From positions 248,001-312,000 of the forward strand of contig OX597830.1 in the NCBI GenBank assembly GCA_951406725.2: a stretch of DNA of 64,000 nt. Reading direction: 5' to 3'. A program made the translations under genes and the position numbers. This DNA comes from Octopus vulgaris. Lineage: Eukaryota. The notes under the pieces were generated by a model, which was given only the letters and a program-made list of their open reading frames with translations, did no database searches and had not been told where the DNA came from. Below are positions 7,853-56,094 of this stretch, piece after piece; the stretch's first letter is position 1; every line of letters begins with the position of its first letter.

Positions 7853-8148
7853 AAACACAATACTTAGGTGTGATATTGGATATCTGGGTTCAAGTTCCGG
7901 TAGTCTCATTTTCGCCACATGGGGCAAAACAATAAAACTGACATTGGTTTGTCGCTTGTGTAGTCAGTGATTGAATTGTATAAAGAGCATAAGGAATAGC
8001 TCCCTGTTTTTCTTTTTCTCTTTCTCTCTATTCGCACACCTATACGCAAACACACACACACACACATGCATACGCGCGCGCACACATGCACACACACATA
8101 AACACACACACACACACACAGATGGATCACATATAAAGTCACCTACAG
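7853..8148. repeat. Second copy of the 696-989 inverted duplication
   Basis: Reverse complement of 696-989. Confidence 0.95.
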
Positions 8149-20316: not shown

Positions 20317-21900
20317 AAACTTAGATAAACTTAGATGTGTTTCGACCAATGATTGGTCCAGGCCATGTCTAACTTAATAGCACCACCTGATAGGATTATT
20401 TGAATCCTGTTTAAGTCAAGTTTTGTTTATGGTCCATTCAATTAGTGAGTTTTTGTTGGGTGAGTTGTATCCAATTATGGGTGGCTTATCTGGTATTCCT
20501 TGAAAGAATCTATCCAGACTCCGTTTAGAGTTGATGGGATCCCCTTCCTCTTTGATCTCTTTCGGGACAATGTTAAATAGGGCAGGGCCTGTTGAGGAAA
20601 AGAAATTATGTTGTAGTGTACATGTATGCTGTGATCTTGAATTGGGCAGGGGACGTATGGCCCGAGGTCCCAGTCTTGGATGAACCTTGAAGATAATGTT
20701 CAGGTCGTTTGGGCAAAGATGGCGGTATATTCTCCACATCGTACAAAGACATGTAAAGACATCGTACACGGCGACGCTGAAGAGAGTAGAGTTTCAAGGC
20801 TTTAAGGCGATCCCAATAATCGAGAGCAGCCATGCCTTCGATTCGATTAGTGAGTGCCCTCTGGGGTGATTCAATCCTCGAGATGTTTTGTCTTGTAAGG
20901 GGAGACCACAGTGGGCAGCAGTATTCGAGGTGTGGCCGTACAAAGGAGGAGAAAAGTGGTATGGTGACACCTTGTTCTCTGGACCGGAAAGTTCTTAAGA
21001 TCCAGGAACTCATCCTACAGCTATATCGACCTTCTTGTTGATGTGTGCACTCCAACTGAGATCGTCATCAACAATTACACCCAGGTCTCTGATATTGTCA
21101 GAGGCTGTGAGCGGTTCCCCTGAAGGAAGAGAGTATGGCTATTTTAGTGAGGAATTTCTTCCAAAATGCATCAACTCAAATTTTCCCTCGTTCAGTTGTA
21201 TTTTGTTTCTGTCTGCCCATTGAATCACAGCATATAGATCAGACTGGAGTTGAGTTCGGTCTGCTTCTTCATTGACGATTTGCTGGAGCTTAGTGTCATC
21301 AGCAAATATTTTCACTTTGCAGTAATGTACGACACTGGAAAGGTCGTTTATGTAGATTATGAAGAGTAGCGGACCCAAGACAGTCCCCTGGGGGACACCG
21401 CTGGTGACTTTTGCTGGGCTTCAGTGGACTCCATCAACTACAACATGTTGTGTTCTATTCGCCAGGAAATACTTGATCCAGTGTAGAACTTTTCCACGGA
21501 TTCCAACATTTGCCAATTTTGAGAGTAGGATATTATAGTCTACCCTGTCGAATGCTTTACTGAAGTCAAGGTATATGACATAAGAGTTCGAACCTGTTCC
21601 CAAGGCTTTGAGTACATCTTCAATGTGGTGTAAGAGCTGCGTTAGACAGTCCCTGCCACAGCGAAAGCCATGCTGATTTGCATTCAGGAGCTTGTGGGTC
21701 TCCAGGAAGTCAGCTATCCTTGATCTTAACACTCTTTCAAACACTTTGATGATGTGGGAGGTGAATGAGATTGGGCGATAGTTGAGTGCGAGGGATCTGT
21801 TTCCCTGTTTGAAAACCGGGATGACTGACTGGGATAGAAACTGTTTCGGTATATAACCTGCGTCTAACGAATTTCTCCAGAGGTTGGTCAGAGGGACTGC

Positions 21901-21902
<2 letters not shown>
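20317..21902 (-). mobile_element. 5'-truncated CR1-group LINE (RT plus 3' tail)
   Basis: NYRPISFTSHIIKVFER, QHGFR, YLDFSKAFD, SGVPQGTVLGPLLF, FADDTK, HLEYCCPLWSP; 3' tail (ATCTAAGTTT)2; frameshifts; 5' end abuts (TA)n. Confidence 0.93.
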
Positions 21903-21956
<54 letters not shown>

Positions 21957-22242: not shown

Positions 22243-22426
22243 TCTTTTAATTGTTTCAGTCATTTGATTACGGCCATACTTGAAGGGTTTTAGTCGAACA
22301 AAATGACCCCAGGACTTATTCTATCGGCTTCTCTAGTCGAACCACTAAGTTACGGGGACGTATACACACCGATACCGGTTTTCAAGTGGTGATAGGGGGA
22401 CACAAGACAGAAAGATACACACAGAC

Positions 22427-22472
<46 letters not shown>

Positions 22473-22605
22473 GAATGGCTTCTTTCAGTTTCCGTCTTCC
22501 AAATCCACTCACAAGGCTTTGGTCAGTCCGAGACAAGTTGCCATGCAGTGAACCTGAACCATGTGGTTGGGAATCTTGCTTCTCCCCACGCAGCCATTCC
22601 AGCCC
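22243..22605 (-). mobile_element. tRNA-derived SINE, diverged uninterrupted copy
   Basis: Homologous along its length to 48054-48427 plus 56057-56094 (GTTTCAGTCATTTGA..., CTAAGTTACGGGGACGTA, TTCTTTCAGTTTCCGTCT, CCATGTGGTTGG). Confidence 0.9.
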
Positions 22606-25655: not shown

Positions 25656-27127
25656 ATGGCGTCGTCTTTGTCAGCGAGTCAACAAGAGAGGGAAGTGAGA
25701 GGAGATGTAGAACGCGAAATTGTCTTCCGTCTTCTCTCTCACCCACTCACTCTAGATGTAAATGATAGTGGTATTAGCAGTAGGAGTAGCAACAGCAATG
25801 ACAACAATAACAACCATACTGGAAGTGTCATGGGTAATGAGAATTCGATCAAGGAAGCACGAAATATAACTAGTAGCAGTCAATTGTGCAAGGGAGATGA
25901 TGATTCCCCCACACACACACACACACAAATCAGGTTCAAATATAAATAACGTTCCCTTCGCAGAAATTACAAATAAGTTTGAAATTATGTCGTTAAAGGA
26001 TAAGGAAGAACATTTAAAAGAAGCTGAGACGATTATAAGACGTGAAGAAAGAAAGTTCACACTAAATGTGCCTCAAAACTTGCTAGAGGCAATCTAAAAA
26101 GAAAAAGAATCAGTCATGTACAGATGACACTCCATGAAAATTAGACTGGAAAAAATACCATCAGATCAAGTCGAGCTCTGCGTGAAAACTATATGGGGAA
26201 ATGTCAGCTTTGTCTGCCACACCCCAAAGTTCGGCTTCATCAAGGTCATATTCCAGTCGGAATCACTCGCACAAAAACACTCAACTGTCCCATTAAAAAC
26301 GGAGGAGTTCGCTTTAATTCCCATCTATCTGGAATAGAAAGTGATCCGAATAAAAATAACATTCCATCAGAAATTGATTTCTGGTGAGTACTGAAAGTTG
26401 TAGTACTGAAAGATCCTAGAAGCCTCCTAGAAATCCAAAAAGGTAAACTGGGTGGAGCAGGGTCGGAAATTCTACTGCAGGTAATACCAAAACTGTAGAG
26501 AAAATTCCCGACATAATAGAAATCCCTGGCGGTCAGCATCTGCAGGTAATCGTGGAAGGAAGAAGGCCAAAATACTACTTCTGTGGTGATTCCGGTCACG
26601 TCAGGTTCTATTGTCCGAAGGAAAGAAAGAAAAGGGGTAAAAAATGAGCCGCATCAACCACTAACGCCACTACAACCACAACAGACAACACAACAAGAGC
26701 AGCAGCAGCAGAAACAACAACGACACCTACAGAGACAACTGGACACAACAGTATCCAGAAAAACCATTTCAGCACCGGCAACTGCTGCAGCGACCACAAC
26801 GGATGGGGTGGAAACGACTGCTGAATGTCAAGCAGGATACAGACCAACATCAGCAACAACAACAGCAACAGGGAGCTCCCAACCAAAAATAATAACAGCA
26901 CTATTAACAACGCCAACAGTAAAACAAATACCTCAGGAAACCCCTCCCCTATTCGGACGACGAAAACGACGGAAATAAGTAGGACCAGGCATGGCGAACA
27001 GTCACACGAAAGGGAAGGAAAAGACGGAAGAGCAGATATGATAACCAGAAAAAACAAAAAACACAAAAAAAAACAGGCAGAGAAAATGGAGGAGGAAACG
27101 AACAGCACACCAGGCATAAACCCACCT

Positions 27128-27158
<31 letters not shown>

Positions 27159-27240
27159 GGCAACAATAATATCATCCCCACCACAACTTGAAGAAACATC
27201 ACAAACACAACAGATGGACTGCATTCCACCAAATGATCAT
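25656..27240 (+). pseudogene. Degenerate Tx1-clade ORF1 (gag-like)
   Basis: EKIPSDQVELCVKTIWGNVSFV, EFALIPIYL, LQVIVEGRRPKYYFCGDSGHVRFYCP (decayed CCHC), then a T/Q/P-rich linker; aligns by eye with ORF1 at 52551-53473; no ORF2 follows. Confidence 0.75.
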
Positions 27241-28515: not shown

Positions 28516-30680
28516 TATACATGTCTTCTGTGCAAGCCGTATGCCAGAAATATGTCCCAGAGCACAAGGCCAAAACAAATAGGAGCAAGATTCCAAGAGA
28601 TAGGAAGATCCTCATGAGACGACGGACGAAGGTTGCAAATCGTCTCAACCAACATCCCAAAAGTAGCGAAACGTCCCGCCTAAAAACAACACTGATGGAG
28701 ATCGAAAAAAGGCTGCAACAATCCTATGTGAAAGAGAAAGCAGACAAAGAAGCCTGAGTTATAAAAAGCATTAAATCAAACCCAAAGGCCTTCTTTCATT
28801 ACGCGAAAGAAACAGTCTCAGTACACTACAAGATAGGACCCCTCCTCCAAAAGGATGGCTTCCTCACAGACAGTCCAACTATGATCAGTGAGATGCTGAA
28901 TGACCAGTTCAAAAGTGTCTTTACCACCCCGTTAGAACATAGACAAGTGAACGAACCAGTGGACTTCTTTGCCGTCTCACCTATAACCAGCGAGAATGTA
29001 TTGACATTAGCGAAAAAGATGTCCTACTAGCCATAGATGAAGTGGACACAAACTCAGCTGCTGGTCCAGACGGTTTCCCAGCCATCCTCCTCAAAGCGTG
29101 TAAGCATGCCCTGGCAAAACCCCTCAAGATTCTCTTCCAGAGCCTTCTTGCGAATGGCAAGCTGCCAAACAAGCTGAAGGAGGGAATAATATGCCCAATA
29201 CATAAAGGGGGAAGTAGAGCAGATGCCCAAAACTATAGGCCTATCTCTCTGACTTCACACATCAACAAAGTCATGGAAAGGATAGTCAGAAAGAAACTAA
29301 TCGCATTCCTTGAGGAAAATAACTTGCTGAGTGATACCCATCATGGTTTTCGACCAGGTAGGAGCTGCCTGACACAGATCTTACAACATTATGACTGGGT
29401 GTTGAGACAGTTACTCAACAAATCAAATGTGGACGTAATCTACCTTGATTTAGCAAAAGCTTTTGACAAGGTGGATGATGGTATGATATGCCACAAACTG
29501 CGTGACCTCGGCATTGCTGGAAAACTTGGAGTGTGGTTGCATGACTTCCTGAAAGATAGGAGTCAGGCAGTAGTGGTTAATGGAGCCACCTCTATGAACA
29601 CACAAATAGTGAGCGGTGTTCCACAGGGCACTGTCTTGGGACCACTGCTTTTTATAGTGGCCCTCTCAGATATACTCTCAAATGCACGGATAGCCACTCT
29701 GGCCAGCTATGCAGACGATACGAAAGTCTCGCAGAAAATACAGAACCCCAGCGATGTTGCACACCTGCAGCAGGAGTTGGACTCAATCTACAGATGGGCT
29801 GAGGATAATAATATGCAGTTTAATGCTGAAAAATTCCAGGCCCTGCGCTACCAGTATCCAAAACTTACAGGATACACCGGTCCATAGGGAATTTCAATCC
29901 CAGAGCCTAAGTCTGTGAGGGACCATGGTATCGACATGAGTGATGATACCTCTTTCCAAGTGCACATTACCAGGATGGCGACAAAGTGCAGACGACTGGC
30001 TGCGTGGATCCTAAGAACATTCAGAACCAGAGATAAGGAAACTATGATGGTCCTCTGGCGGACATTCGTCCTCAGCCACCTGGATTACTGCTCACAGCTA
30101 TGGTCATCCACCAGTGTAAAATTAACAGCGGACCTTGAAGCAATCCAGAGAAGATTCACAAAGAAGATCGTCTCTTTGCAACAGCTCAGCTACTGGGAAA
30201 GGTTTAAACAGCTAAGACTCTACTCCCTGGAGAGAAGACGGGAGAGGTATGCAGTAATATATATCTGGAAGATCCTGGAAGGAATTGTGCCAAATTTTGG
30301 CATTGTAAGCTACACCAATGCTAGAACAGGACGACACTGCATAGTGCCAAAGATCCCAGCAATGCCATCACGCTTCAGGACCAGCTTCTGCAACAGCCTG
30401 GGTTTCAAGGGCCCACAGCTTTTTAATATTCTCTCAAAGAGTCTGAGGGACTTGCACAAAGTAGATGTAGCGGTTTTTAAATCAAAGCTGGACATCTTCC
30501 TGTCAAGAGTCCCAGATGAACCTGCCTCACGGCAAGAGGTGCAAATGAGAGTAGCTATATCAAACTCCAGTCTTCACCAAGTGCCACATATTAGACGAGG
30601 TTCGTCGTAATAACAGTGTAGCATAAAACGGCGGTGCATCAGCATGGCCGCAGCTCTGAGCTGAAACTAGAAAAAAAAAA
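28516..30680 (+). mobile_element. 5'-truncated CR1-group LINE with complete RT and 3' end
   Basis: ORFs 29042-29887 (NYRPISLTSH, YLDLAKAFDKV, SGVPQGTVLGPLLF, YADDTK) and 29915-30610; 3' tail GGCGGTGCATCAGCATGGCCGCAGCTCTGAGCTGAAAC plus poly(A). Confidence 0.95.
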
Positions 30681-32499: not shown

Positions 32500-33760
32500 T
32501 GAAGGAAGGTAAAATATGCCCTATTCATAAAAGAGGTAGCAGAGCGGAGGCCAAGAACTACAGACCTATCTCTCTGACCTCACACATCAGCAAGGTCATG
32601 GAACGAATAGTCATAAGGAAATTAATCACCTTCCTTGAAGAAAGTGACTTGCTGCCTGACACCCAACATGGTTTCCGACCAGGAAGAAGCTGCCTAACTC
32701 AGCTCCTACAACACTATGACTGGGTGCTGAAACGACGGCTCAACCACTCAAATGTGGAAGTCATATATCTCGACTTTGCAAAGGCCTTTGATAAAGTCGA
32801 TCATGGAATGATACGTCACAAACTGCGTGATCTTGGCATAGTTGGAAAATTGGGAGAATGACTTTATGAATTTCTGAAGGATAGACGTCAGGTGGTAGCA
32901 GCCAATTCCATTAACAGGTGGCCACTTCCATTAACACGCAAATAGTGAGCGGTGTTCCGCAAGGCACTGTTTTGGGACCAATACTGTTCATAATGGCCCT
33001 CTCAGACATGCCCTCAGCCACGCAGAGAGCCACGATCACAAGTTATGCAGATGATACAAAAGTTTCACAGGCAATACAGAACCCTGAAGACACTAAGCAC
33101 CTGCAATGTGAGCTGGACAAAATATACAAGTGGGCTGAAAAGAAAAGCGTGCAGTTCAATGCTGAAAAGTTTCAAGCTTTATGCTATCAGCATGCAAAAC
33201 TAAATGCAATACCCAATGAATACACTGGACCTGGGGGGATTGCAATCCCAGAGGCACAATCAGTGCGTGACCTGGGTATTTACATGAGTGATGACGCAAC
33301 CTTTCATGTACATGTTGCTAAATTGGCAATGAAATGTAGGCGGCTGGCCGGATGGATTCTTAGAACCTTTAGAACAAGAGACCAAGACACCATGATGGTC
33401 CTCTGGAGGACACTTGTCCTAAGCCACTTTGACTATTGCTCTCAGCTATGGTTACCATCCAGTGTCAAGTTGATCACAGAACTTGAGGCGATCCAACGAA
33501 GCTACACGAAGAAGATAGCCTCTGTGCAGCATATAAGCTACTGGGAAAGACTCAAGAGATTAAGACTGTATTCCTTAGAGCGTAGGCGAGAAAGATATGC
33601 CATAATATACATCTGGAAGATCCTAGAAGGACTTGTCCCAGACTTTGGCATCGAGAGTTACACAAATGCCAGAACTGGGCGCCACTTCGTGGTGCCAAGG
33701 ACTCCAAATTTGCCATGAAGATGTAGAACAAGATACTGTAATAGCCTAGGCTTCAGAAGC
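32498..33760 (+). mobile_element. CR1-group LINE RT fragment (related subfamily of 28516-30680)
   Basis: KNYRPISLTSHISKVMER, YLDFAKAFDKV, SGVPQGTVLGP, YADDTK; 5' end abuts (TA)n; 3' end missing. Confidence 0.93.
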
Positions 33761-43569: not shown

Positions 43570-44400
43570 ATCTATATGAAGTTTGGCTGTATGTAATGTC
43601 TGTTTTCTCGAACAGCCGCTTCTACTGAGTACTGCTGTTGGTTTATTTCTTATACATAAAGGACTATAGCTTCAACTGCGTACTGCTTTTTGATTTACCG
43701 TAAGGTTTGTTATTATAATTACTGTTTAACTATTGTTATCACGTTTGTTGGTTCCTCGTAAGGGAAACGTTGTTGTGTTGCATTTGTTAAATAATTGTAA
43801 ACTGTAACCCTCCCCCTTTGGGAGAAGGATCTTTGGTTATTGTTTAAAAATTGAATTGTGTCCCTGTTTGGGGAAATTGACAATATTTTCACCGTTTACA
43901 CGGAAGCATTTTTGTTAGAATGCCTTCGATAGAAGAAAGTCCAAAAATGAATTTCGCTGTAACCGTCGGCGGGCGCGAACTCATTAAAATTAAAAGGGAA
44001 GAAATACAAACCTATTTCGGATTGATCACCGACAAAGATGGTGAATCTAGGATAACACCACCAAACGAAATAAAAAATTAAATTAAAGAAAAGACTATTG
44101 TCTATAAAGTAAACAATGTAGAGAAAAAATAGATTTGAACACCTGGAGGAAAGCACCATCGAAAAGTGTCTTGGTGCGACTATGAAAGATATTCGCCACA
44201 ATAGAAGCAAGGTTCGAGTCAACGGAGCGTGCAAAGTGGAAATATTTTATTTTTACCTTCATATCTGGGACGTAGGATGTCCCGGATAAAAATTAAAAAT
44301 GCACCCCCGGAAGTAGAGGTAGGCTGGATTGTAGCCATACTTCTACACAAGAGGAAGGACAAGATACAATTGATCGAAATTGCAAGAGACGGGCCTACAA
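43570..44400 (+). pseudogene. Tx1-clade 5' UTR plus degenerate ORF1 N-terminus
   Basis: NRFEHLEESTIEKCL and LFLPSYLGRRMSRIKIKNAPPEVEVGWIVAILLHKRKDKIQLIEI match RRFKHFEKSTIEKCL and LFPSYRGRRSSRVRIVEAPPDVDPVEVVAALLYKRADKIKILEV of the element at 48428-53862. Confidence 0.8.
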
Positions 44401-45001: not shown

Positions 45002-45514
45002 AAAAGCTACAAATAACCTAAATCACTTAAAAAGATTCTCACAAAGGCAAAATTGTTTTCTGAAATTACGGATGCAAAAGTAAAAAAATGTGGTAGACCA
45101 AACTGCGCAACATGCCCAAACCTTCTAGAAGGATCAGAATTCCGTTTCAAAGAGGGACAAAAATTCAAGATCACATCTAATTTTACTTGTGCTTCTGAAA
45201 ACATAATTTATGTCATAAGATGCTCGGGCTGCCACCAAAACTACGTAGGGTCCACGGGATTATCACTCAGACGCAGATGCACTCTGCATCGACAACAGAT
45301 TGCATTCCCAGAATACAGAATGATACCCTTTAGTGAGCATATTGAGAAATGTGCAAAGCAACTACTACCAAATTTTTTAATCTTTCCATTCTATCAATGT
45401 GCTATTGGAACACCAACACAAATTAGATTAAACAAGGAAACATTCTTCATTGAAAAATATAAGCCTGAACTTAACCATCCTAACATCCTTATACAGAGAA
45501 ACTCATCTCATTAA
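45002..45514 (+). CDS. GIY-YIG endonuclease domain of a Penelope-like element (5'-truncated, open frame)
   Basis: CGRPNCATC zinc-finger-like linker; FTCASENIIYVIRCSGCHQNYVGST; RRRCTLH; RLNKETFFIEKYKPELN. Confidence 0.85.
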
Positions 45515-48053: not shown

Positions 48054-48427
48054 ACTCTTTACTCTTTTACTTGTTTCAGTCATTTGACTGCGGCCATGCT
48101 GGAGCACCGCCTTTAATCGAGCAACTCGACCCCGGGACTTATTCTTTTGTAAGCCTAGTACTTATTCTATCGGTCTCTTTTTTGCCGAACCGCTAAGTGA
48201 CGGGGACGTAAACACACCAGCATCAGTTGTCAAGCAATGCTAGGGGGACAAACACAGACACACAAATACACATACATACATATATACGACAGGCTTCTTT
48301 CAGTTTCCGTCTACCAAATCCACTCACAAGGCATTGATCGGCCCGGGGCTCTAGCAGAATATACTTGCCCAAAATGCCACGCAGTGGGACTGAACCGGGA
48401 ACCATGTGGCTGGTTAGCAAGCTACTT
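48054..48427 (-). mobile_element. tRNA-derived SINE, body and 3' part (split by Tx1 insertions)
   Basis: B-box-like GGTTCAGTCCC; CR1-type tail GGCGGTGCTCCAGCATGGCCGCAGTCAAATGACTGAAAC plus (AAGAGTA)n; continues at 56057-56094. Confidence 0.93.
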
Positions 48428-48655
48428 TATTTCATATAATTTGCCATTTAGGCATTTACAAAGAGGGGACAAACAAGGACAGACAAATATAAAGGGTGAA
48501 GTAGCTTAACACAGTTACAATTTTCGAATGAAATTACGGATAAGATTATAAACAATGAATTTTACGAAGGCAATGTTTAAAAATATTAATGATCATGTCG
48601 AAGGACGGACACCCAGCCATCCGGGTAGAACCTTTACTTTCTGATCCGGTCACAC

Positions 48656-51600
48656 TTACCTGGTGCCAAACATACCCATCTTGTATGCCACAGGCTTCCA
48701 TCTTTTCACAAACATATCTCGTGACAGACACCTCTTCTCCAGCCTGATTTTGCTACTGAGGTGGTAACTAAAAAAGTTAATCAACCCCTGGCCGGAGACA
48801 AAGGTGCCTGTCATTATACCTTTCGTACGCGTCTTCCATACTGTTTCTTTCAGTATGGCTACTACACAGAAAAAACAAGCCTTTCTTTCCCTGTTAAGGA
48901 AAGGGGGCGGCACAATCTCGATGATAGACTCAGCTGATAGCTGTACTCTTCCCATCACTGACAACAGTTGTTCTACAAAAGCTATCAGTCCCGATAACTC
49001 CGGACACTCCACGAATGCGTGCAAGACGGTCTCCCTATCCTGCTCACATCGCGGGCATGTCGGCGAGACGGCACTACCGTGCCTTGACAGCTTGTCGCGA
49101 ACAGGTAAAGCCGCACGGAAACACTGCCAGGCTAAGGATTTCTGGTAATTATCCAGATACCCCGGCCCGAACGTCCTCCGGAACAGGTTGATCAACTGAT
49201 TTTCATCGTAGCCCAGGGTCTCCCCCAAGGCGTCTTCGGACTTAATCTCCACTAACCCGCTATAGAAATCCGTGGTGGAACTCCTGTTGCCGGCGTTGCC
49301 CACCCGAGATAGTAGCTGGAGCGCCTGACGGCACTCCAAATGCCATTCACTCAGTTTAGGTCTCCGCTTGATCCATGCACCGATGTCCGTTAGGGATGTT
49401 AACTGGGGAAGGTAGAACCGGACGTGCGGCGACCACACCTGCTCTCCATCCAGGTAAGGCCAGAGGTGCCTCAACCTTAACGCGAGTTTTCGCATCCTCA
49501 GCCAAGGCATCCCTAGCCCACCCTTTAGCGGTTTCTGGCAGCAGACAGAGCGCTTTACAAGTGGCTTTCCTCCTTTCCACAAAAATCGGAAAAGGATTCT
49601 CTCCAACTTGTTCAGCCACAAATCGGGGCAAGGCACCACGGTCAGACGGTAGGTGATTACTGATGCTATAAACATCTGCACCACCTCCGCCTTCCCTAGA
49701 AGGGATAACGCCCGCCCAGACCAGGTCTGGGTTAGAGCGGTCACCTTATTGGCCACCTCACTCCAATTTTTCTCAATCTGGAGGTCTGGCCCGAACCAGA
49801 CTCCGAGCAGCTTAACAGGACCTTCCGTCCAACGCCCTACGACGTTATTGGACGGCATCGGCTTGCCCCTCCTGGTGCCGAGTTGCAAACCGACCGACTT
49901 GTCCTTGTTAACCTTTGCTCCTGCACCGCCTCGTAGCTTTTTATGGCCTCTTCCACCACTGGAAGCTGGCCTTCGTCTGCCACGATGATGGAGGTGTCAT
50001 CCGCATATGCCGTAGCTCCTCTTCCACACCATAGATCATGCGGCGCGCCCCCTAGTGCCTCCAACTTCCGCAGCAAAGGCTCAAGAGCCAATACATATAG
50101 GAGCGAGGACAGGGGACACCCTTGACGAACTGAACGCTCGATCCTGAACGGCTTCGAAAAGGAACCGTTCACCTTGACTACAGACTCGATGTCGCTATAC
50201 AAAGCAGCGATCCAACCTCGAAAGGTCGGGCCTAGGCCAGCCTCTCCGAGGACCGCCGCCAGGTACCGATGGTCGACCCTATCAAATGCTTTGGACTGGT
50301 CTAAATGTACCAGTGCTCCCCCTGCGCCAGAAAGCTTCCCCACCCTCTCTAAGGAGTAGCGTATAAGGTGGAGATTGTCGTGGATCGTTCTGCCGGGGAT
50401 AGCGCACGTTTGCGCTTCCCCGACAAGTTTGTCCACGACCCGCGCCAACCTTTTTGCTAGCACCTTGGCCAGAATCTTTAACTCTGTGTTTAACAGAGTT
50501 ATGGGCCTGAAGTTCCCTATCTCGTCCCCCTTGTTCGGGTCCTTCCTGATCAAGGTCACCGCCCCCCGGCTCGCAGACTTGGGAATTCTCCCATTCTGCT
50601 GCCAGTTGGCGTAGACGCTAGCCAGCAGGTGCCCGAACAAGTTTGGCATACTTCTATAAAATTCATAGGGCAGACCATCGAGACCCGGCGACTTCTCCCC
50701 GGGGCACTTGCCCAACACCTCGATTACTTCCTCGGCTGTGATTGGCCCTTCACAGTACTCAGCCTCTCGTGTCGAGAGGCGCGGGCCACCAGACAGGAAG
50801 TCCCTAAGGGCCTCACCATGATCCAGCGTCCCGCACCTCCCGAACAACTCGGCGAAGTGCTTGTGGAGTGCCTCACACATCTCGTCCCGCTTCTTGATCG
50901 TGCATCCGTTTTCATCAACAAGAGACCCAATTGTGGCATCGTTTCCACGCTGTGTTTCTATCGTACGGGCCCATCCGGCAACATTAATTCCCTCACGGCC
51001 CAATGCTCGTACTTTAGCCCGGACTCTACATCCCTCATGTTTGGTTTTGAGGTGACGGTCTAATGCCGTTCTCGCCGCTAAAATGTGAGATGCAGAGCCC
51101 AACCTCAACGCCTCCTCTAAGTTCTTAACTAGTTGCCCTTCTATTCTAGCCCTATCTAGTCTTAGTTGTTTACTAAATCTAATGGACTCGAATCGAATGG
51201 CTCTTTTGAGGGTGAACCACCACCGGTTATTAACCACGGCTCCGGTTAACGCCCTCTGCACTAACACCTTAATCCGGATACGGTATGCCTCGCGTGTCAA
51301 AATAGACTTGTTCAGCTTCCAGTAGCCGGTTCCTATCTTAAGTGTGCTATCTATGTCCAGTCTACACGTGACCATTCTATGGTCAGTATAGGGCACCTGG
51401 ACGAGCTGTGGACAACTAAAACTAGACTTATCTCTAGTTCTTATCACTATCCTGTCTAGATAAGACTTGAACCTTCCGTCGCCACTCATCCAGGTCCACT
51501 CTGGGACGTTCGGATGGTCAAGTCTGTAACGATCTGCTAGCTGAAACCGCTTAAGCAGATCCACGAGACGTGAGTTCACTTTCCTATAGATCGAGCCAAC

Positions 51601-52056
51601 GCTATCGATGTGTACGTCAACGATAGCATTAAAGTCCCCTAATATCACTAAAGTCTTCGACGTCACGAGAAAGCCCTCTAGGCGCCGATAAAAATCAGTT
51701 TGGAAACCTCTAGCACAAGGTGCATAGAGTCCGATCAACCTGAAGGCCTTACTGCTGTATGTCACATCAAGGACGACCAGCCCACCTTCTGGGTCTACAT
51801 AGACTGTACTTGTCTGTAGAGCCAAGTCTTTACGGATCAGTACCACTACGCCCCCTCGCCCTCCGGTCTGGCCAGGAGACATGATTTTCTCGTAGCCATT
51901 CAGGAGAGGCGAGAAGGTTTGTAGGCTGTCCAGCTTGGTCTCTGTAGCAACCATCACATGTATATCATGTGATCTGAGGTCGTCGAGGAAACAAGCCTGC
52001 TTCCATTTCGAACTCAGACCACGCACATTTAAACAACCAAGGTTAAGCGAAGCCAT
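48656..52056 (-). CDS. Tx1 ORF2: APE endonuclease plus reverse transcriptase (one frameshift near 49925)
   Basis: LNVRGL, GDFN, SYLDRIV, TDH (APE); KSPGLDGL, NFRPITLLNTELKILAK, LDQSKAFDRV, VRQGCPLS, AYADD (RT); CPRC..ETVLHAFVEC. Confidence 0.93.
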
Positions 52057-52072
52057 TACAAAAGTAAAGGTT

Positions 52073-53473
52073 CTACTTACATTTCGTTGGAGAGGTGGGG
52101 GCCGACCTCACCACACGTTTGTGGGTCCCTTCTTTCTCCTCTTTCTTCAGATAGTCCGGCAAGTTCGCGATATGCCGGATGGCGTTTGGGTGTCTGTCTT
52201 TTAATTGTTTGAACGTTGTTTCCGCAATCCACGCGTGTCTATTTCGATCTTTGTATTTGTTGTACAGTCTTGCTGACTGATGCTGAACCACAATATCGTT
52301 TATGTATTTGTCTTGTGTGTCGAATTCAATTAATATGAGTTCATTTTCTTTTTTGTCTTCTTTTTCTGGGCCAGTTGAGCGGGATTTTTTTTCCGTGTCT
52401 GTGGTGTGTCTTTGTTTTTATTATTTTTTGTAGGGGATGTGGACGGGGATGCTGCACGAATTCTTTTACGAACTGGTGTAAATCCCCCCTCTGATACCTC
52501 CATGGTATCGTCTGTGGTAGCAATAGTTTGTTCGGTAGGCGCCGCAGTTTTTAGGGGGTGGGAGGTTTTAATAGTGTAGGGGTTTGTGAGTGCGAGGGCT
52601 GGGTTTTTTCTTCAGTCTGTTTTGGGGTTGGCACCGTAACAGCAGGAGTGGGATTTTTTGTTTTTGTAGGGGTAGGTGTGTTTGCAAGGGTAGGGACTTT
52701 TTTATTATCTGAGGGGCCTGGTGTCTGCGGTTTCTTTTGCTTGTCTGGACAGTCTACACGAATGTGGCCCTTTTTGCTGCAGGCGTAACAGGTGGGTTTT
52801 CGGCCTTCGACCTGTACCCTGAGGGCTACGTTCTCGCCCACGAGCACCCTCTCAGGAAGGAGCTGCAGGTCCTCCGCTGTTCCTTGAATTAATATATTAA
52901 TGTTACGCCCGAGCCAAAATCGAGGGGTAGAGCATGTTACTTCTAGTATTTTTATTTTGTCCGCCCTTTTATATAACAGGGCGGCCACTACCTCTACCGG
53001 ATCTACGTCCGGCGGGGCTTCTACAATCCTGACCCGGGACGACCTGCGTCCCCTATAGCTTGGAAAAAGTACCACCTCCTTGGTTTTTAGGGGGTTCACA
53101 GAATGCCCGCGGGCCATTTCTTCCCCGAGAAGCGGACATCCACAGTGCCATATGCCCGTCCCCTGGCGACGTACACGATGTTCTTCCAAATCGGGGACAG
53201 GCATTTCTCGATGGTGCTTTTTTCAAAGTGTTTGAACCTTCTGCTTTGTGGACAGAAAGTTTTAAACACTACGGTCCGCTTCTCGGTCTCCACGATACTG
53301 ACGGAGGGTGATATTTTAACATCACCACCCTCCTCTTGCATTCTTTTAAATAGCTCGACGAGCTGGTTGACATCGATGTCAATCTTCTCGGTAGCCACTG
53401 CGGCTACCTCAGAAAATTTTTTAACATTGCTCTCCTCAAGAGCACTACTTTCGTGAATAATTTCAACAGACAT
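52073..53473 (-). CDS. Tx1 ORF1 (gag-like, CCHC zinc knuckle), broken by homopolymer frameshifts
   Basis: MSVEIIHESS...RGRAYGTVDVRF / EEMARGHSVNP...VEGRKPTCYACSKKGHIRVDC, P/T-rich linker; ends at 52073, just before the ORF2 ATG. Confidence 0.85.
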
Positions 53474-53878
53474 TATTCTGTTGAAATTAGACAACACAAA
53501 AATTACGAATATTGGTTTCCCACAAAACTGGGAAACCTATAGAAAGTTTTTCTTCCAAAGTAGTTCAAAAAAGCAGTTCAAAAATTCCAATTCCCACCCC
53601 CATTCGGGGGAGGGGCACGAAAATAGTCTGGCAGGACTATATATAGTCACGTAAATAAAAAGCCACAGTGGCTAACAGTTCAACGGTAAGAAATTATTCA
53701 ATTATTTCCCGGTAAAACCGGAGAACAAGACAGTTCAGCAACGTTTAAAGGCAAATTTTCAGTAGTAGGAATTCAACAATTAACAACACAGCAAAACTCT
53801 TACCGGGAAGAAAACGCGTCCAAACCATAGTACGGTAGGCAAAGTCACTCTTCTGTCAGTGAGGTTAGCAAGCTACTT

Positions 53879-56056
53879 TATTTCAAAACATTTGCCATAA
53901 AGGCAGTACACAGATTAAGTTAGCTTTGCGGGCTGGACGAGGACATTAATGAGGTGAATGATAATGAAAGAAAGATGATAAGGATGGGAGAAGACAGAAA
54001 GCGCCCGCCGACTTTTGCTTCTCTAAAACATTGTTCTTTTTAAAAAAGATTAACACAAAACGAGGTATTAATCCTCTTACAATTTTTCAATTTTTGGACT
54101 TAAGTCCATTACTAATAATACATATCGTCCTCGAAATAGCTTGTGCCCGCGCCCTCCACCATCAACCACGCCTCCATCAGAACGTAGTCAAGTTCCGAGT
54201 TCGCGTCGCCCGGGACCAAGTTATAGTCTTCATTGAGCTCCTTTAGCCCTAGCGTCACGTCGAACGCCACGGCCTCCACAGCTACCTGCGGAGGCCATTC
54301 GGGGTCCTGTGTGAAGGCTAAAGGTGCTCCCTTGTAGTGCTCTTCCATCACTTTTTCAATTTCTCCTCCTCTATAGAAGAGGACCAATACATTCAGTTCT
54401 TTCGTTGGCGGCACAGTTTCCGCCAACGGTATTCCTTCTCTTGTCGGTGGCACAACCCCAACCGACGTAGTTCCGCGACATTCCGGTGCCACACTGACAG
54501 CCGGCAACGTCCCGTTTTTCTTCCTCTTTTTCTTTTTTTTCCCTTTTCAACTGAGGGAGGGTGCGTCTCCTCCGTGGCTGGAAGATTCGCCCTCCTCTCC
54601 TCATCCCTATTATCCTTTGGTGAGCACCCATTGTTGCTCACCTTCCTCTTCGGCCTCTGCTTGAGGAGTCCTCTGCTTTCTCGGCCGTTATCGTTCCCTC
54701 TTCTAGAGGGGTTTTACTTAACTGTTCCGGGATCCTATTTTGTTCCCGAGGACAGTTCTTCTTTATGTGGCCGGACTCCAAGCACCGATGACACTTAGGG
54801 GGGCGACCCTCAAGCATCACCGGGTACCTGCACCCGGCCATTTTCAAAAAATCTGGAAAAACCAGATTGGCTGATTGGGTCCACAGGGTCAAAACTGCTT
54901 TCGAGCCAACCCAAGCAGCCGCAGGAAGAACTTTTACATTGAGGAGCTTAGTTTCGCTGTCACCCAGACCCCGGCGGATAGTCTCCTCTATCCACTCGGG
55001 TTCTATGTCGGGTGGCAGTCCGCAGATCCAAGCTTTCATCAATTTCTTTTTTTTGTAAGTGGGCAGGAATAAGATTTCCTTACCCTCCCAGGGTTCGCTA
55101 GCAAATTTGCAAGCCTCTTCAGGGGTGTCAAACAGCAACCACACCGTTCCATATTTGACACCCCTGGAAATGAATTTAATTGTTGGCAAATACTCCTCCA
55201 ACTCCTCCTCAATTGCCGTCTTTTCGAATAGGGCGATGGTGTCAAGTGCCTTGGAGTAGGTTCTCAACACCACCGTCCTATCTTCACGGTCCTTCAACCA
55301 CTTTTTGGGTGGTATGATTTCCCACTCCAAAACTTTGTTATTTTTCATTGCCATGTTTTTTAAGAAATATATTCAAATTAGACTCAAAAGCAGGAAGAAA
55401 AAAGTTCAAAAGTCTAAATAAATTTGATAGATTTTTGAAAAAACAAAAAGGAGAAAGCACAACAGAAGGGAAGAAATTAACGGAAAGTCGCAATAAAGAA
55501 AAAACAAAAGGGGGGGGGGGTAAATGAAGTTCAAAAGAAAGTTAATAAACAGAAAAAACACAGCAAAAATATTCTGGCCTTGCGGTACTCCCGGCCTGGG
55601 TTGAACCTGGAACACCGCAACTGCAACACAACCTCCACAAAAAGGTCCGAAAGGTAATCCAATAGTGGCTTATTTTTATACTTTTCTTGCGAAGTACTCT
55701 GACAAGGGAATAAATTCAACAAATCCAAACACAGCACTGGCTACCGCCAACGGTGATTTTAACAGTAACTGTATTGAATTCTGAGGATACGCCCCTCCAC
55801 TGTTTTTTCTTTTTTTTTTTTTTTTTCAATGAACACAAAAACGGCAGCCGCCTAGCGCAGGCGAAATTGTCTCAGAGTTGGACACAACCTACTGAAATAA
55901 TAATTGGCACGCAATAAATTATGCCCAACTCACAATAAACAAAATCACTTACCTCGACAACTTTCCGTTTTTGGTCTTTTTTCTTTAGTTGGAAGGAGCT
56001 TGTTACTCACGTCCACTCTAGCTCAACAGGAAGCAACCGACTAACTGCGCATGTGT
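53879..56056 (-). mobile_element. ORF1-only Tx1-related non-autonomous element (~2.2 kb, HAL1-like)
   Basis: ~700-bp 5' UTR, ORF1 homologue, no ORF2; 3' end similar to that of 48428-53862; flanked by the same 16-bp direct repeat. Confidence 0.85.
54112..55354 (-). CDS. ORF1 homologue of the ORF1-only element (interrupted after aa 238)
   Basis: RTVVLRTYS, RGVKYGTVWLLF, FLPTY, GLPPDIEPEWI, VMLEGRPPKCHRCLESGHIKKNC; C-terminal segment 54112-54507 is in another frame. Confidence 0.8.
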
Positions 56057-56092
56057 GGTTAGCAAGCTACTTACCACACAGCCACTCCTGCG

Positions 56093-56094
<2 letters not shown>
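56057..56094 (-). mobile_element. 5' head of the split SINE (A-box region)
   Basis: GGCGCAGGAGTGGCTGTGTGGTAAGTAGCTTGCTAACC on the minus strand; matches the head of the copy at 22243-22605. Confidence 0.9.

Follow-up and report, generated by a model that had tools for sequence, protein, structure and literature searches.

How does an element that codes for an ORF1 protein and nothing else come to share its insertion site and its 3' tail with a complete LINE? The question is raised by a locus in a stretch of 64,000 nucleotides of the Octopus vulgaris genome (contig OX597830.1, positions 248,001 to 312,000; hereafter the window, whose coordinates are used throughout), where a tRNA-type SINE head is interrupted by two insertions and three identical 16-bp repeats on the minus strand delimit them. 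Here we report an analysis of the shorter insertion, element A, and of its autonomous neighbour, element B (Table 1). We consider it likely that A represents an ORF1-only non-autonomous family of octopus LINEs, which arose from the same L1-group (Tx1-like) radiation as B and is moved in trans.

Read on the minus strand, the locus consists of the SINE head (56094-56073), a repeat, element A, a repeat, element B, a repeat, and the remainder of the SINE (48411-48060). The window contains exactly three copies of the 16-mer, at 56072-56057, 53878-53863 and 48427-48412, against a chance expectation of 3e-5 for extra copies in 64 kb; all three copies are exact and lie on the minus strand, in agreement with the initial annotation, which had described A as bounded by 16-bp repeats. 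Since the first two bases of the 16-mer also finish the AATAAA of both A and B, the duplication is 14-16 bp long. Both elements are inserted at one base of one locus. The host sequence is a very abundant repeat, with a summed contig depth in run X1 of about 4 million for the head and 6 million for the remainder, and many contigs fuse the head straight to the body (48396-48412) and represent empty sites. An uninterrupted second copy, 66% identical, is located at 22243-22530. ARAGORN found no tRNA, and Rfam returned chance-level matches only. Two SINE motifs, which we take to be box A and box B after their consensus, point to derivation from a tRNA. Octopus OR1, mentioned in PMC4824008, is a SINE of this type and thereby a candidate by name, not by sequence comparison. 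Elsewhere in the window, the intervals ~700-930 and ~7910-8130 form an inverted duplicate about 7 kb apart, with the same 100-base context on opposite strands.

Table 1. Features of the locus, in window coordinates
Feature	Positions	Strand	Basis
Host SINE 5' head, box A-like TGGCTGTGTGG, upstream of the insertion site	56073..56094	-	empty-site contigs
Target-site repeat, copy 1 (14-16 bp)	56057..56072	-	
Element A, ORF1-only, 2,178 bp	53879..56056	-	repeats and UTR/ORF layout
A 5' UTR, 702 bp, T-rich	55355..56056	-	
A ORF1 piece 1, 238 aa: predicted RRM (~14-103), RRM (~103-185), CCHC knuckle (187-202)	54638..55354	-	model, Foldseek, Pfam
A ORF1 linker, second frame	54528..54662	-	P0001 match
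A ORF1 piece 3, 144 codons, third frame, behind A-rich run; probable C-terminal domain	54112..54546	-	
A 3' UTR, 233 bp, no ORF2 remnant	53879..54111	-	
A conserved tail: 4-bp stem (53905-53902 with 53896-53893), 5-nt loop, AATAAA (53882-53877), no poly(A)	53877..53905	-	
Target-site repeat, copy 2, between A and B	53863..53878	-	
Element B, complete L1-group (Tx1-like) LINE, 5,435 bp	48428..53862	-	
B ORF1, several frames in this copy	52073..53473	-	
B ORF2: APE endonuclease, RT, C-terminal zf-RVT; one frame break near 49923	48656..52056	-	Pfam
B tail, same stem and AATAAA	48426..48454	-	
Target-site repeat, copy 3	48412..48427	-	
Host SINE remainder: box B-like GGTTCAGTCC, body, tail	48060..48411	-	second copy elsewhere in window

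Element B carries a full enzymatic outfit. Its ORF2 matches the Pfam families of the APE endonuclease (E 2.5e-12), RT (E 2.7e-24) and zf-RVT (E 2.9e-9), thus combining the APE endonuclease, RT and C-terminal CCHC of Tx1-type members of the L1 group. The nearest solved protein is human L1 ORF2p (E 5e-53), with R2 at 5e-20, and the nine relatives found, Argonauta and cuttlefish proteins among them, include none with a Tx1 name. We regard B as Tx1-like on the basis of motifs that are presumably those of Tx1 elements, of its insertion pattern, and of the L1-Tx1 families of O. vulgaris. Such families number 80 in the accessible part of PMC13282606. In other copies of B, contigs reveal indels in ORF1 at 53122, 52553 and 52384. 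Fragments of RT genes from other LINE families, 25-29% identical to the RT of B, are present at 28973-29728 (+), 21340-21903 (-) and 32547-32942 (+), and a 165-aa ORF at 45017-45514 (+) resembles, by a motif, the GIY-YIG endonuclease of a Penelope-like element.

Element A has the layout of a LINE from which ORF2 is missing. As stated in the initial annotation, its 5' UTR is long and the interior lacks an endonuclease or RT: a tblastn search with both pieces of B ORF2 against A gave 17 matches, the best with an E of 0.55, and no remnant of either domain. The 3' UTRs of A and B are of nearly equal length (233 and 228 bp), and the 5' UTRs have no detectable kinship, with 32 of 300 shuffles scoring as well as the real pair. 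The first seven bases of the A 5' UTR echo the SINE sequence behind the repeat, and the actual start of A may be 56049 instead of 56056. A splice-donor-like GGTAAG is located near the start of both 5' UTRs (55952 and 53803, minus strand); the same six bases span the SINE insertion site, and at the site in A a contig from run X2 is unspliced. The ORF1 of A begins at the ATG at 55354, is spread over three frames and is broken twice in the window copy. At 55089 and 54176, nearly all contigs examined differ from the window base, and the contig base at 55089 restores the residue of the Octopus sinensis protein P0001; the window bases at the two positions appear to be private changes or assembly errors of this copy.

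The first piece of A ORF1 is recognizable as a diverged homologue of B ORF1, with 35% identity over 63 aa (E 1e-8) and, in a longer alignment, 25% over 159 aa (E 7e-14), and it keeps the CCHC motif, as had been noted from the DNA sequence. The zf-CCHC match has an E of 0.0042, under Pfam's cut-off. A structural model built from a 38-row alignment (A and 37 relatives) reached a pLDDT of 88, and a Foldseek search with this model placed tandem-RRM proteins on top (E 1.6e-4). The structural matches to RRM domains have modest Z scores of 7-8.3, with an rmsd of 2-3 over ~70 residues, and RRM proteins account for nearly all of the top rows. According to the model, this part of the A ORF1 protein consists of two RRM folds followed by a CCHC knuckle. 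The linker continues the homology in the second frame, where it matches residues 236-280 of P0001 (E 4e-7, among 61 proteins), and other copies of A have a one-base indel at 54648 in the contig tables.

The third piece is stop-free (p 5e-4 per frame), its codon-position GC resembles that of the coding parts, and it looks coding; it is probably a C-terminal domain, whose correspondence to the conserved C-terminal domain of the relatives is one of position only. No homologue of it was found among 409 candidates of 215-2000 aa. The initial annotation had proposed modelling the segment 54112-54507, and this was unproductive, the fold model of the piece being unusable (pLDDT 33) and no homology being detected. 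Matches to this piece in the Atlas were bacterial hypothetical proteins (0.91, low shared counts) and were rejected. Octopod ORF1 proteins of this radiation (P0017, P0022, P0020, P0027 and P0006) and the window segment 52076-52417 possess a common C-terminal domain of ~80 aa, which lies behind a low-complexity linker, has no Pfam match and shows a weak resemblance to the ferredoxin-like fold (TM 0.51-0.57, the model being poor). A profile of six such domains recognizes its own members (0 of 200 shuffles as good for each) and misses A, for which 296 of 500 shuffles did as well; pairwise and hhalign comparisons of the third piece with this domain were also negative. The second frame break of A falls in an A-rich run (54513-54549), and the corresponding basic stretch is where P0001 stops; candidate explanations are a slippage hot spot or a break common to A and P0001.

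The closest proteins to A ORF1 come from O. sinensis, namely P0001 (67% identical) and an N-terminal piece inside P0002. They are the only close ones among 61 matches in a protein search of unrestricted length, in which seven of the ten looked up were octopod, and neither carries an endonuclease or RT. Identity between A and P0001 amounts to 70% in the first RRM, 81% in the second and 76% in the CCHC knuckle, against 20% in the linker; this contrast between domains and linker is the one that purifying selection produces. A tree was built from the second RRM and the knuckle, limited to the 21 rows that have this motif, and in it A and P0001 form a clade with 100/100 support on a branch of 1.72 changes per site, compared with a median end branch of 0.61. 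The length of this branch supports a long-separated ORF1 lineage. A broad ORF1 alignment contained no stretch conserved enough to serve as a locus probe. Decayed ORF1 relics of the same family are found at 43918-44390 (+) and 25960-27240 (+), with profile i-E values of 3e-15 and 4e-23, and no related ORF2 adjoins either; since the relics look truncated or interrupted, they are uninformative on the ORF1-only structure.

Contigs from sequencing runs bear on whether A is one of many copies. Part of A is present in 20 of the 24 runs listed, which come from nine studies and carry three organism labels, none of the 20 being recorded as an RNA run, and contigs were mapped from four of them (X1, X2, X11 and X16). 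The summed contig depth of A ORF1 is 87,500 in X1, 58,500 in X11 and 4,760 in X16, or 4.3, 6.9 and 9.3 times that of B ORF1, respectively, and ~650-1,200 times the median of eight long contigs listed per run; as overlapping short contigs inflate the sum, this is not a copy number, yet it indicates many copies. The depth of the A 5' UTR is 1.6-2.7 times that of a bin in the B 5' UTR. The passage from ORF1 into the 3' UTR is covered by contigs with an indel at 54102, ten bases behind the ORF1 stop (depths 2,478, 2,286 and 314 in three runs), and by others with an indel in a homopolymer at 54042, 70 bases behind the stop (depths up to 1,948, 4,879 and 685). Because an indel call needs alignment on both sides, we infer that this passage is common to many copies. 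In X2, a contig of 2,083 nt covers 54049-56064, from the 5' end through the stop, at 99% identity (19 substitutions and 27 gap letters), leaving 63 bases unaligned past 54049 and 23 before 56064. On this indirect evidence, A is very probably a multicopy ORF1-only family.

These data weigh heavily against a deletion confined to this locus, or an error of assembly, as the origin of A. The frame breaks of A and B at or near homopolymers, where copies elsewhere have single indels, do point to errors in the assembly or the copy, but high depth and indel-bearing contigs behind the stop recur in three runs under three organism labels, and A has intact flanking repeats of its own, which makes this explanation extremely improbable. 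The initial annotation had read A as a non-autonomous family and not a single deletion product, and had named as the contrary case an ORF2 between this ORF1 and this 3' UTR in other copies; the depth behind the stop in three runs upholds the former, and the deep contigs at 54102 and 54042 argue against the latter.

A subtler alternative is that A is a recent internal deletion of an unseen autonomous family with the same UTRs and ORF1, and that this parent moves A and supplies most of the ORF1 depth. Elements of this kind are thought to originate by internal deletion, as stated in the available portion of PMC5786205. The X2 contig, from another sample, departs from the window sequence at 63 bases beyond the stop, a distance plausible for a spacer between ORFs, and by bin depths its 63 unaligned bases do not lie on the adjacent A UTR; in addition, depth over the final 150 bases of A exceeds that over its ORF1 by a factor of ~2-3, which fits both 5' truncation and a further element with the same UTR. 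Against this origin, the deep contigs with homopolymer indels at 54042 lie within seven bases of the departure point, so that the window form is common, and no ORF2 remnant is present on either side. P0001 and P0002, the only close proteins of the 61, are also without endonuclease or RT, a weak argument because ORF2 is a separate protein. We consider such a recent deletion unlikely. Among the contig rows listed, none bridges 54025-53879 and none represents a second A copy with both flanks; these rows are the best 24 loose ends (6,083 more) and the best 15 joints (769 more), in which SINE ends dominate. A scan of metagenomes for A-family peptides gave no relatives among 558 stretches, and the tail pattern was found at 5 viral-contig and 74 metagenome loci, in none of which (0 of 79) tblastn or blastn revealed similarity to the SINE or to either element. 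A single bacterial match to the junction pattern in prokaryote genomes was taken as chance.

If A is a family without its own enzyme, it must borrow one; that it has the same junction and tail as B suggests B or a relative as the source. Both tails meet the target at the same base, at the end of AATAAA and without poly(A). Anchored at the repeat, 22 of the last 27 bases are identical between A and B (p 9e-9), and 18 of 23 remain so when the last four are left out (p 6e-7), so the observation that the two 3' ends are alike and keep a TGCC/GGCA hairpin and AATAAA is confirmed. A local alignment of the two 3' UTRs scored better than 2000 of 2000 shuffles, and 85 of 2000 reached the score when AATAAA was removed. 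The TGCC-N5-GGCA stem is present in the predicted fold of the last 64 nt of both tails, whose stability is not unusual (z 0.37 for A and -1.79 for B). As the stem is invariant between A and B, it offers no covariation and the pairing is unproven; the probability that all five tail differences spare the stem by chance is 0.09. In PMC3747384, stem-loops in 3' tails are described as typical of LINEs with stringent recognition. With considerable probability A is moved by a B-type ORF2p through this tail, and the chances that the stem itself is the recognition signal appear to be even. One joint row in X11 (48457 to 56062, depth 318) reads as a SINE head followed immediately, at this site, by a B-type tail of ~30 bases, and hints at such insertions elsewhere, joints with short sides being unreliable. 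That the preference for the SINE site holds genome-wide is, in our judgement, probable.

The three identical repeats and the tandem arrangement would also be expected if A and B had moved jointly, by read-through or template switch, in which case A would need no targeting of its own. However, A ORF1 is 4-9 times as deep as B ORF1 and the A 5' UTR 1.6-2.7 times as deep as the bin in the B 5' UTR, which means that a full B does not accompany most copies of A, and A has its own tail and junction. Joint movement is therefore very improbable, and we return to separate insertion in trans. A would be transcribed from its own long 5' UTR and would make its own ORF1p, which would coat A RNA in cis. The ORF2p of B or a relative would bind the last ~30 bases (the stem, then AAUAAA) and nick the SINE head on its bottom strand, at a T/A step that immediately follows box A. 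Two A:T pairs formed by the final AA of the RNA would prime reverse transcription, and the duplication would result from a further nick at a distance of 14-16 bp. Site choice would be a property of the borrowed endonuclease. The chemistry of TPRT is established, and a nick at a T/A step is as for the L1 endonuclease. Each insertion would regenerate the site, and hence A and B would stack head to tail. The initial annotation had proposed that A is mobilized in trans by a Tx1 ORF2p via the hairpin; the same junction base and the similar tail favour this proposal, and from them we infer the trans step and the role of the hairpin.

A further reading, which we advance tentatively and at slightly less than even chances, is that A is a long-lived Tx1-group ORF1-only lineage that has survived the loss of its parent, is more numerous than its helper and persists with no more than a 30-base tail, which any of several SINE-targeting ORF2 proteins can read. 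Age had been claimed for A from the start: the long branch of its ORF1 lineage (1.72) is in favour, and the 99%-identical copy in another sample, which points to recent activity or to an allele, is not. If the lineage is indeed long-lived, the locus displays three layers of parasitism, a half-LINE on a LINE on a SINE, with arrays growing in SINE heads. In that case A would also provide a natural system for asking why ORF1p is needed in cis and an instance of stringent 3' recognition in an animal L1-group element. Since A and B have just 27-39 terminal bases in common, the pair points to a minimal RNA signal for ORF2p and makes it testable. The unannotated repeat family also yields false gene models in Octopus (P0001 and P0002).

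Mammalian L1 ORF1p has a coiled-coil/RRM/CTD architecture. HeT-A, an ORF1-bearing non-autonomous LINE, occurs at a fixed target in head-to-tail arrays together with autonomous partners, and is added to chromosome ends without TSDs. Bao and Jurka are said to have described, in 2010, a faster evolution of ORF1 in HAL1, which the long branch of A would fit. The ORF1-present non-autonomous LINEs named in the accessible text of PMC5786205 are HAL1 (L1), HeT-A (Jockey) and Ag-Sponge (CR1). HAL1 encodes ORF1p without ORF2p and has originated several times from autonomous elements, according to the part of PMC5753468 available. A resembles these elements in that ORF1 is kept, ORF2 is absent and the 3' end is common with an autonomous partner, and by contig depth and indels in three runs the ORF2-less form is multicopy. 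A differs from HAL1 in its octopod relatives, its RRM-RRM-CCHC ORF1p, as predicted, and its lack of poly(A), and in having a defined 3' tail and a specific insertion site common with its autonomous neighbour; A works like HAL1 and is not a HAL1 member. HeT-A (Drosophila) and Ag-Sponge (Anopheles) belong to other clades. Unlike HeT-A at its chromosome ends, A is inserted into a SINE head and flanked by a duplication of 14-16 bp. If the family is what it appears to be, it would be a fourth origin of ORF1-only LINEs, in a sequence-specific mollusc lineage, and the loss of ORF2 with ORF1 kept would be a general strategy.

In the available portion of PMC4494074, the target-specific Tx1 clade comprises Tx1L, Keno, Kibi, Koshi and Tx1-Mar, whose targets include a piggyBac, U2, microsatellites, Mariner, Harbinger and LTR elements, and target preference is assigned when >20% of flanks lie in one sequence type. 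B has the same APE endonuclease, RT and C-terminal zinc finger and, at this one locus, lies at the same base of a multicopy sequence as A, but a tRNA-type SINE head is absent from the targets in that portion and would be an added landing site. In the open literature we found neither a Tx1 element reduced to ORF1 nor a cephalopod Tx1 that targets a SINE, and a Repbase or Dfam entry may exist. Non-coding elements that inherit a LINE target are known: SINEU-3 of crocodilians borrows the target of Tx1-Mar and forms tandem stacks around a 16-bp TSD inside another transposon (PMC4494074, in part), and the R2 and R2/R1 SIDEs of Drosophila keep a 3' UTR signal (PMC3414825, in part). A would inherit its target as they do, but keeps an ORF1 with conserved domains, and the new part is this ORF1-only passenger.
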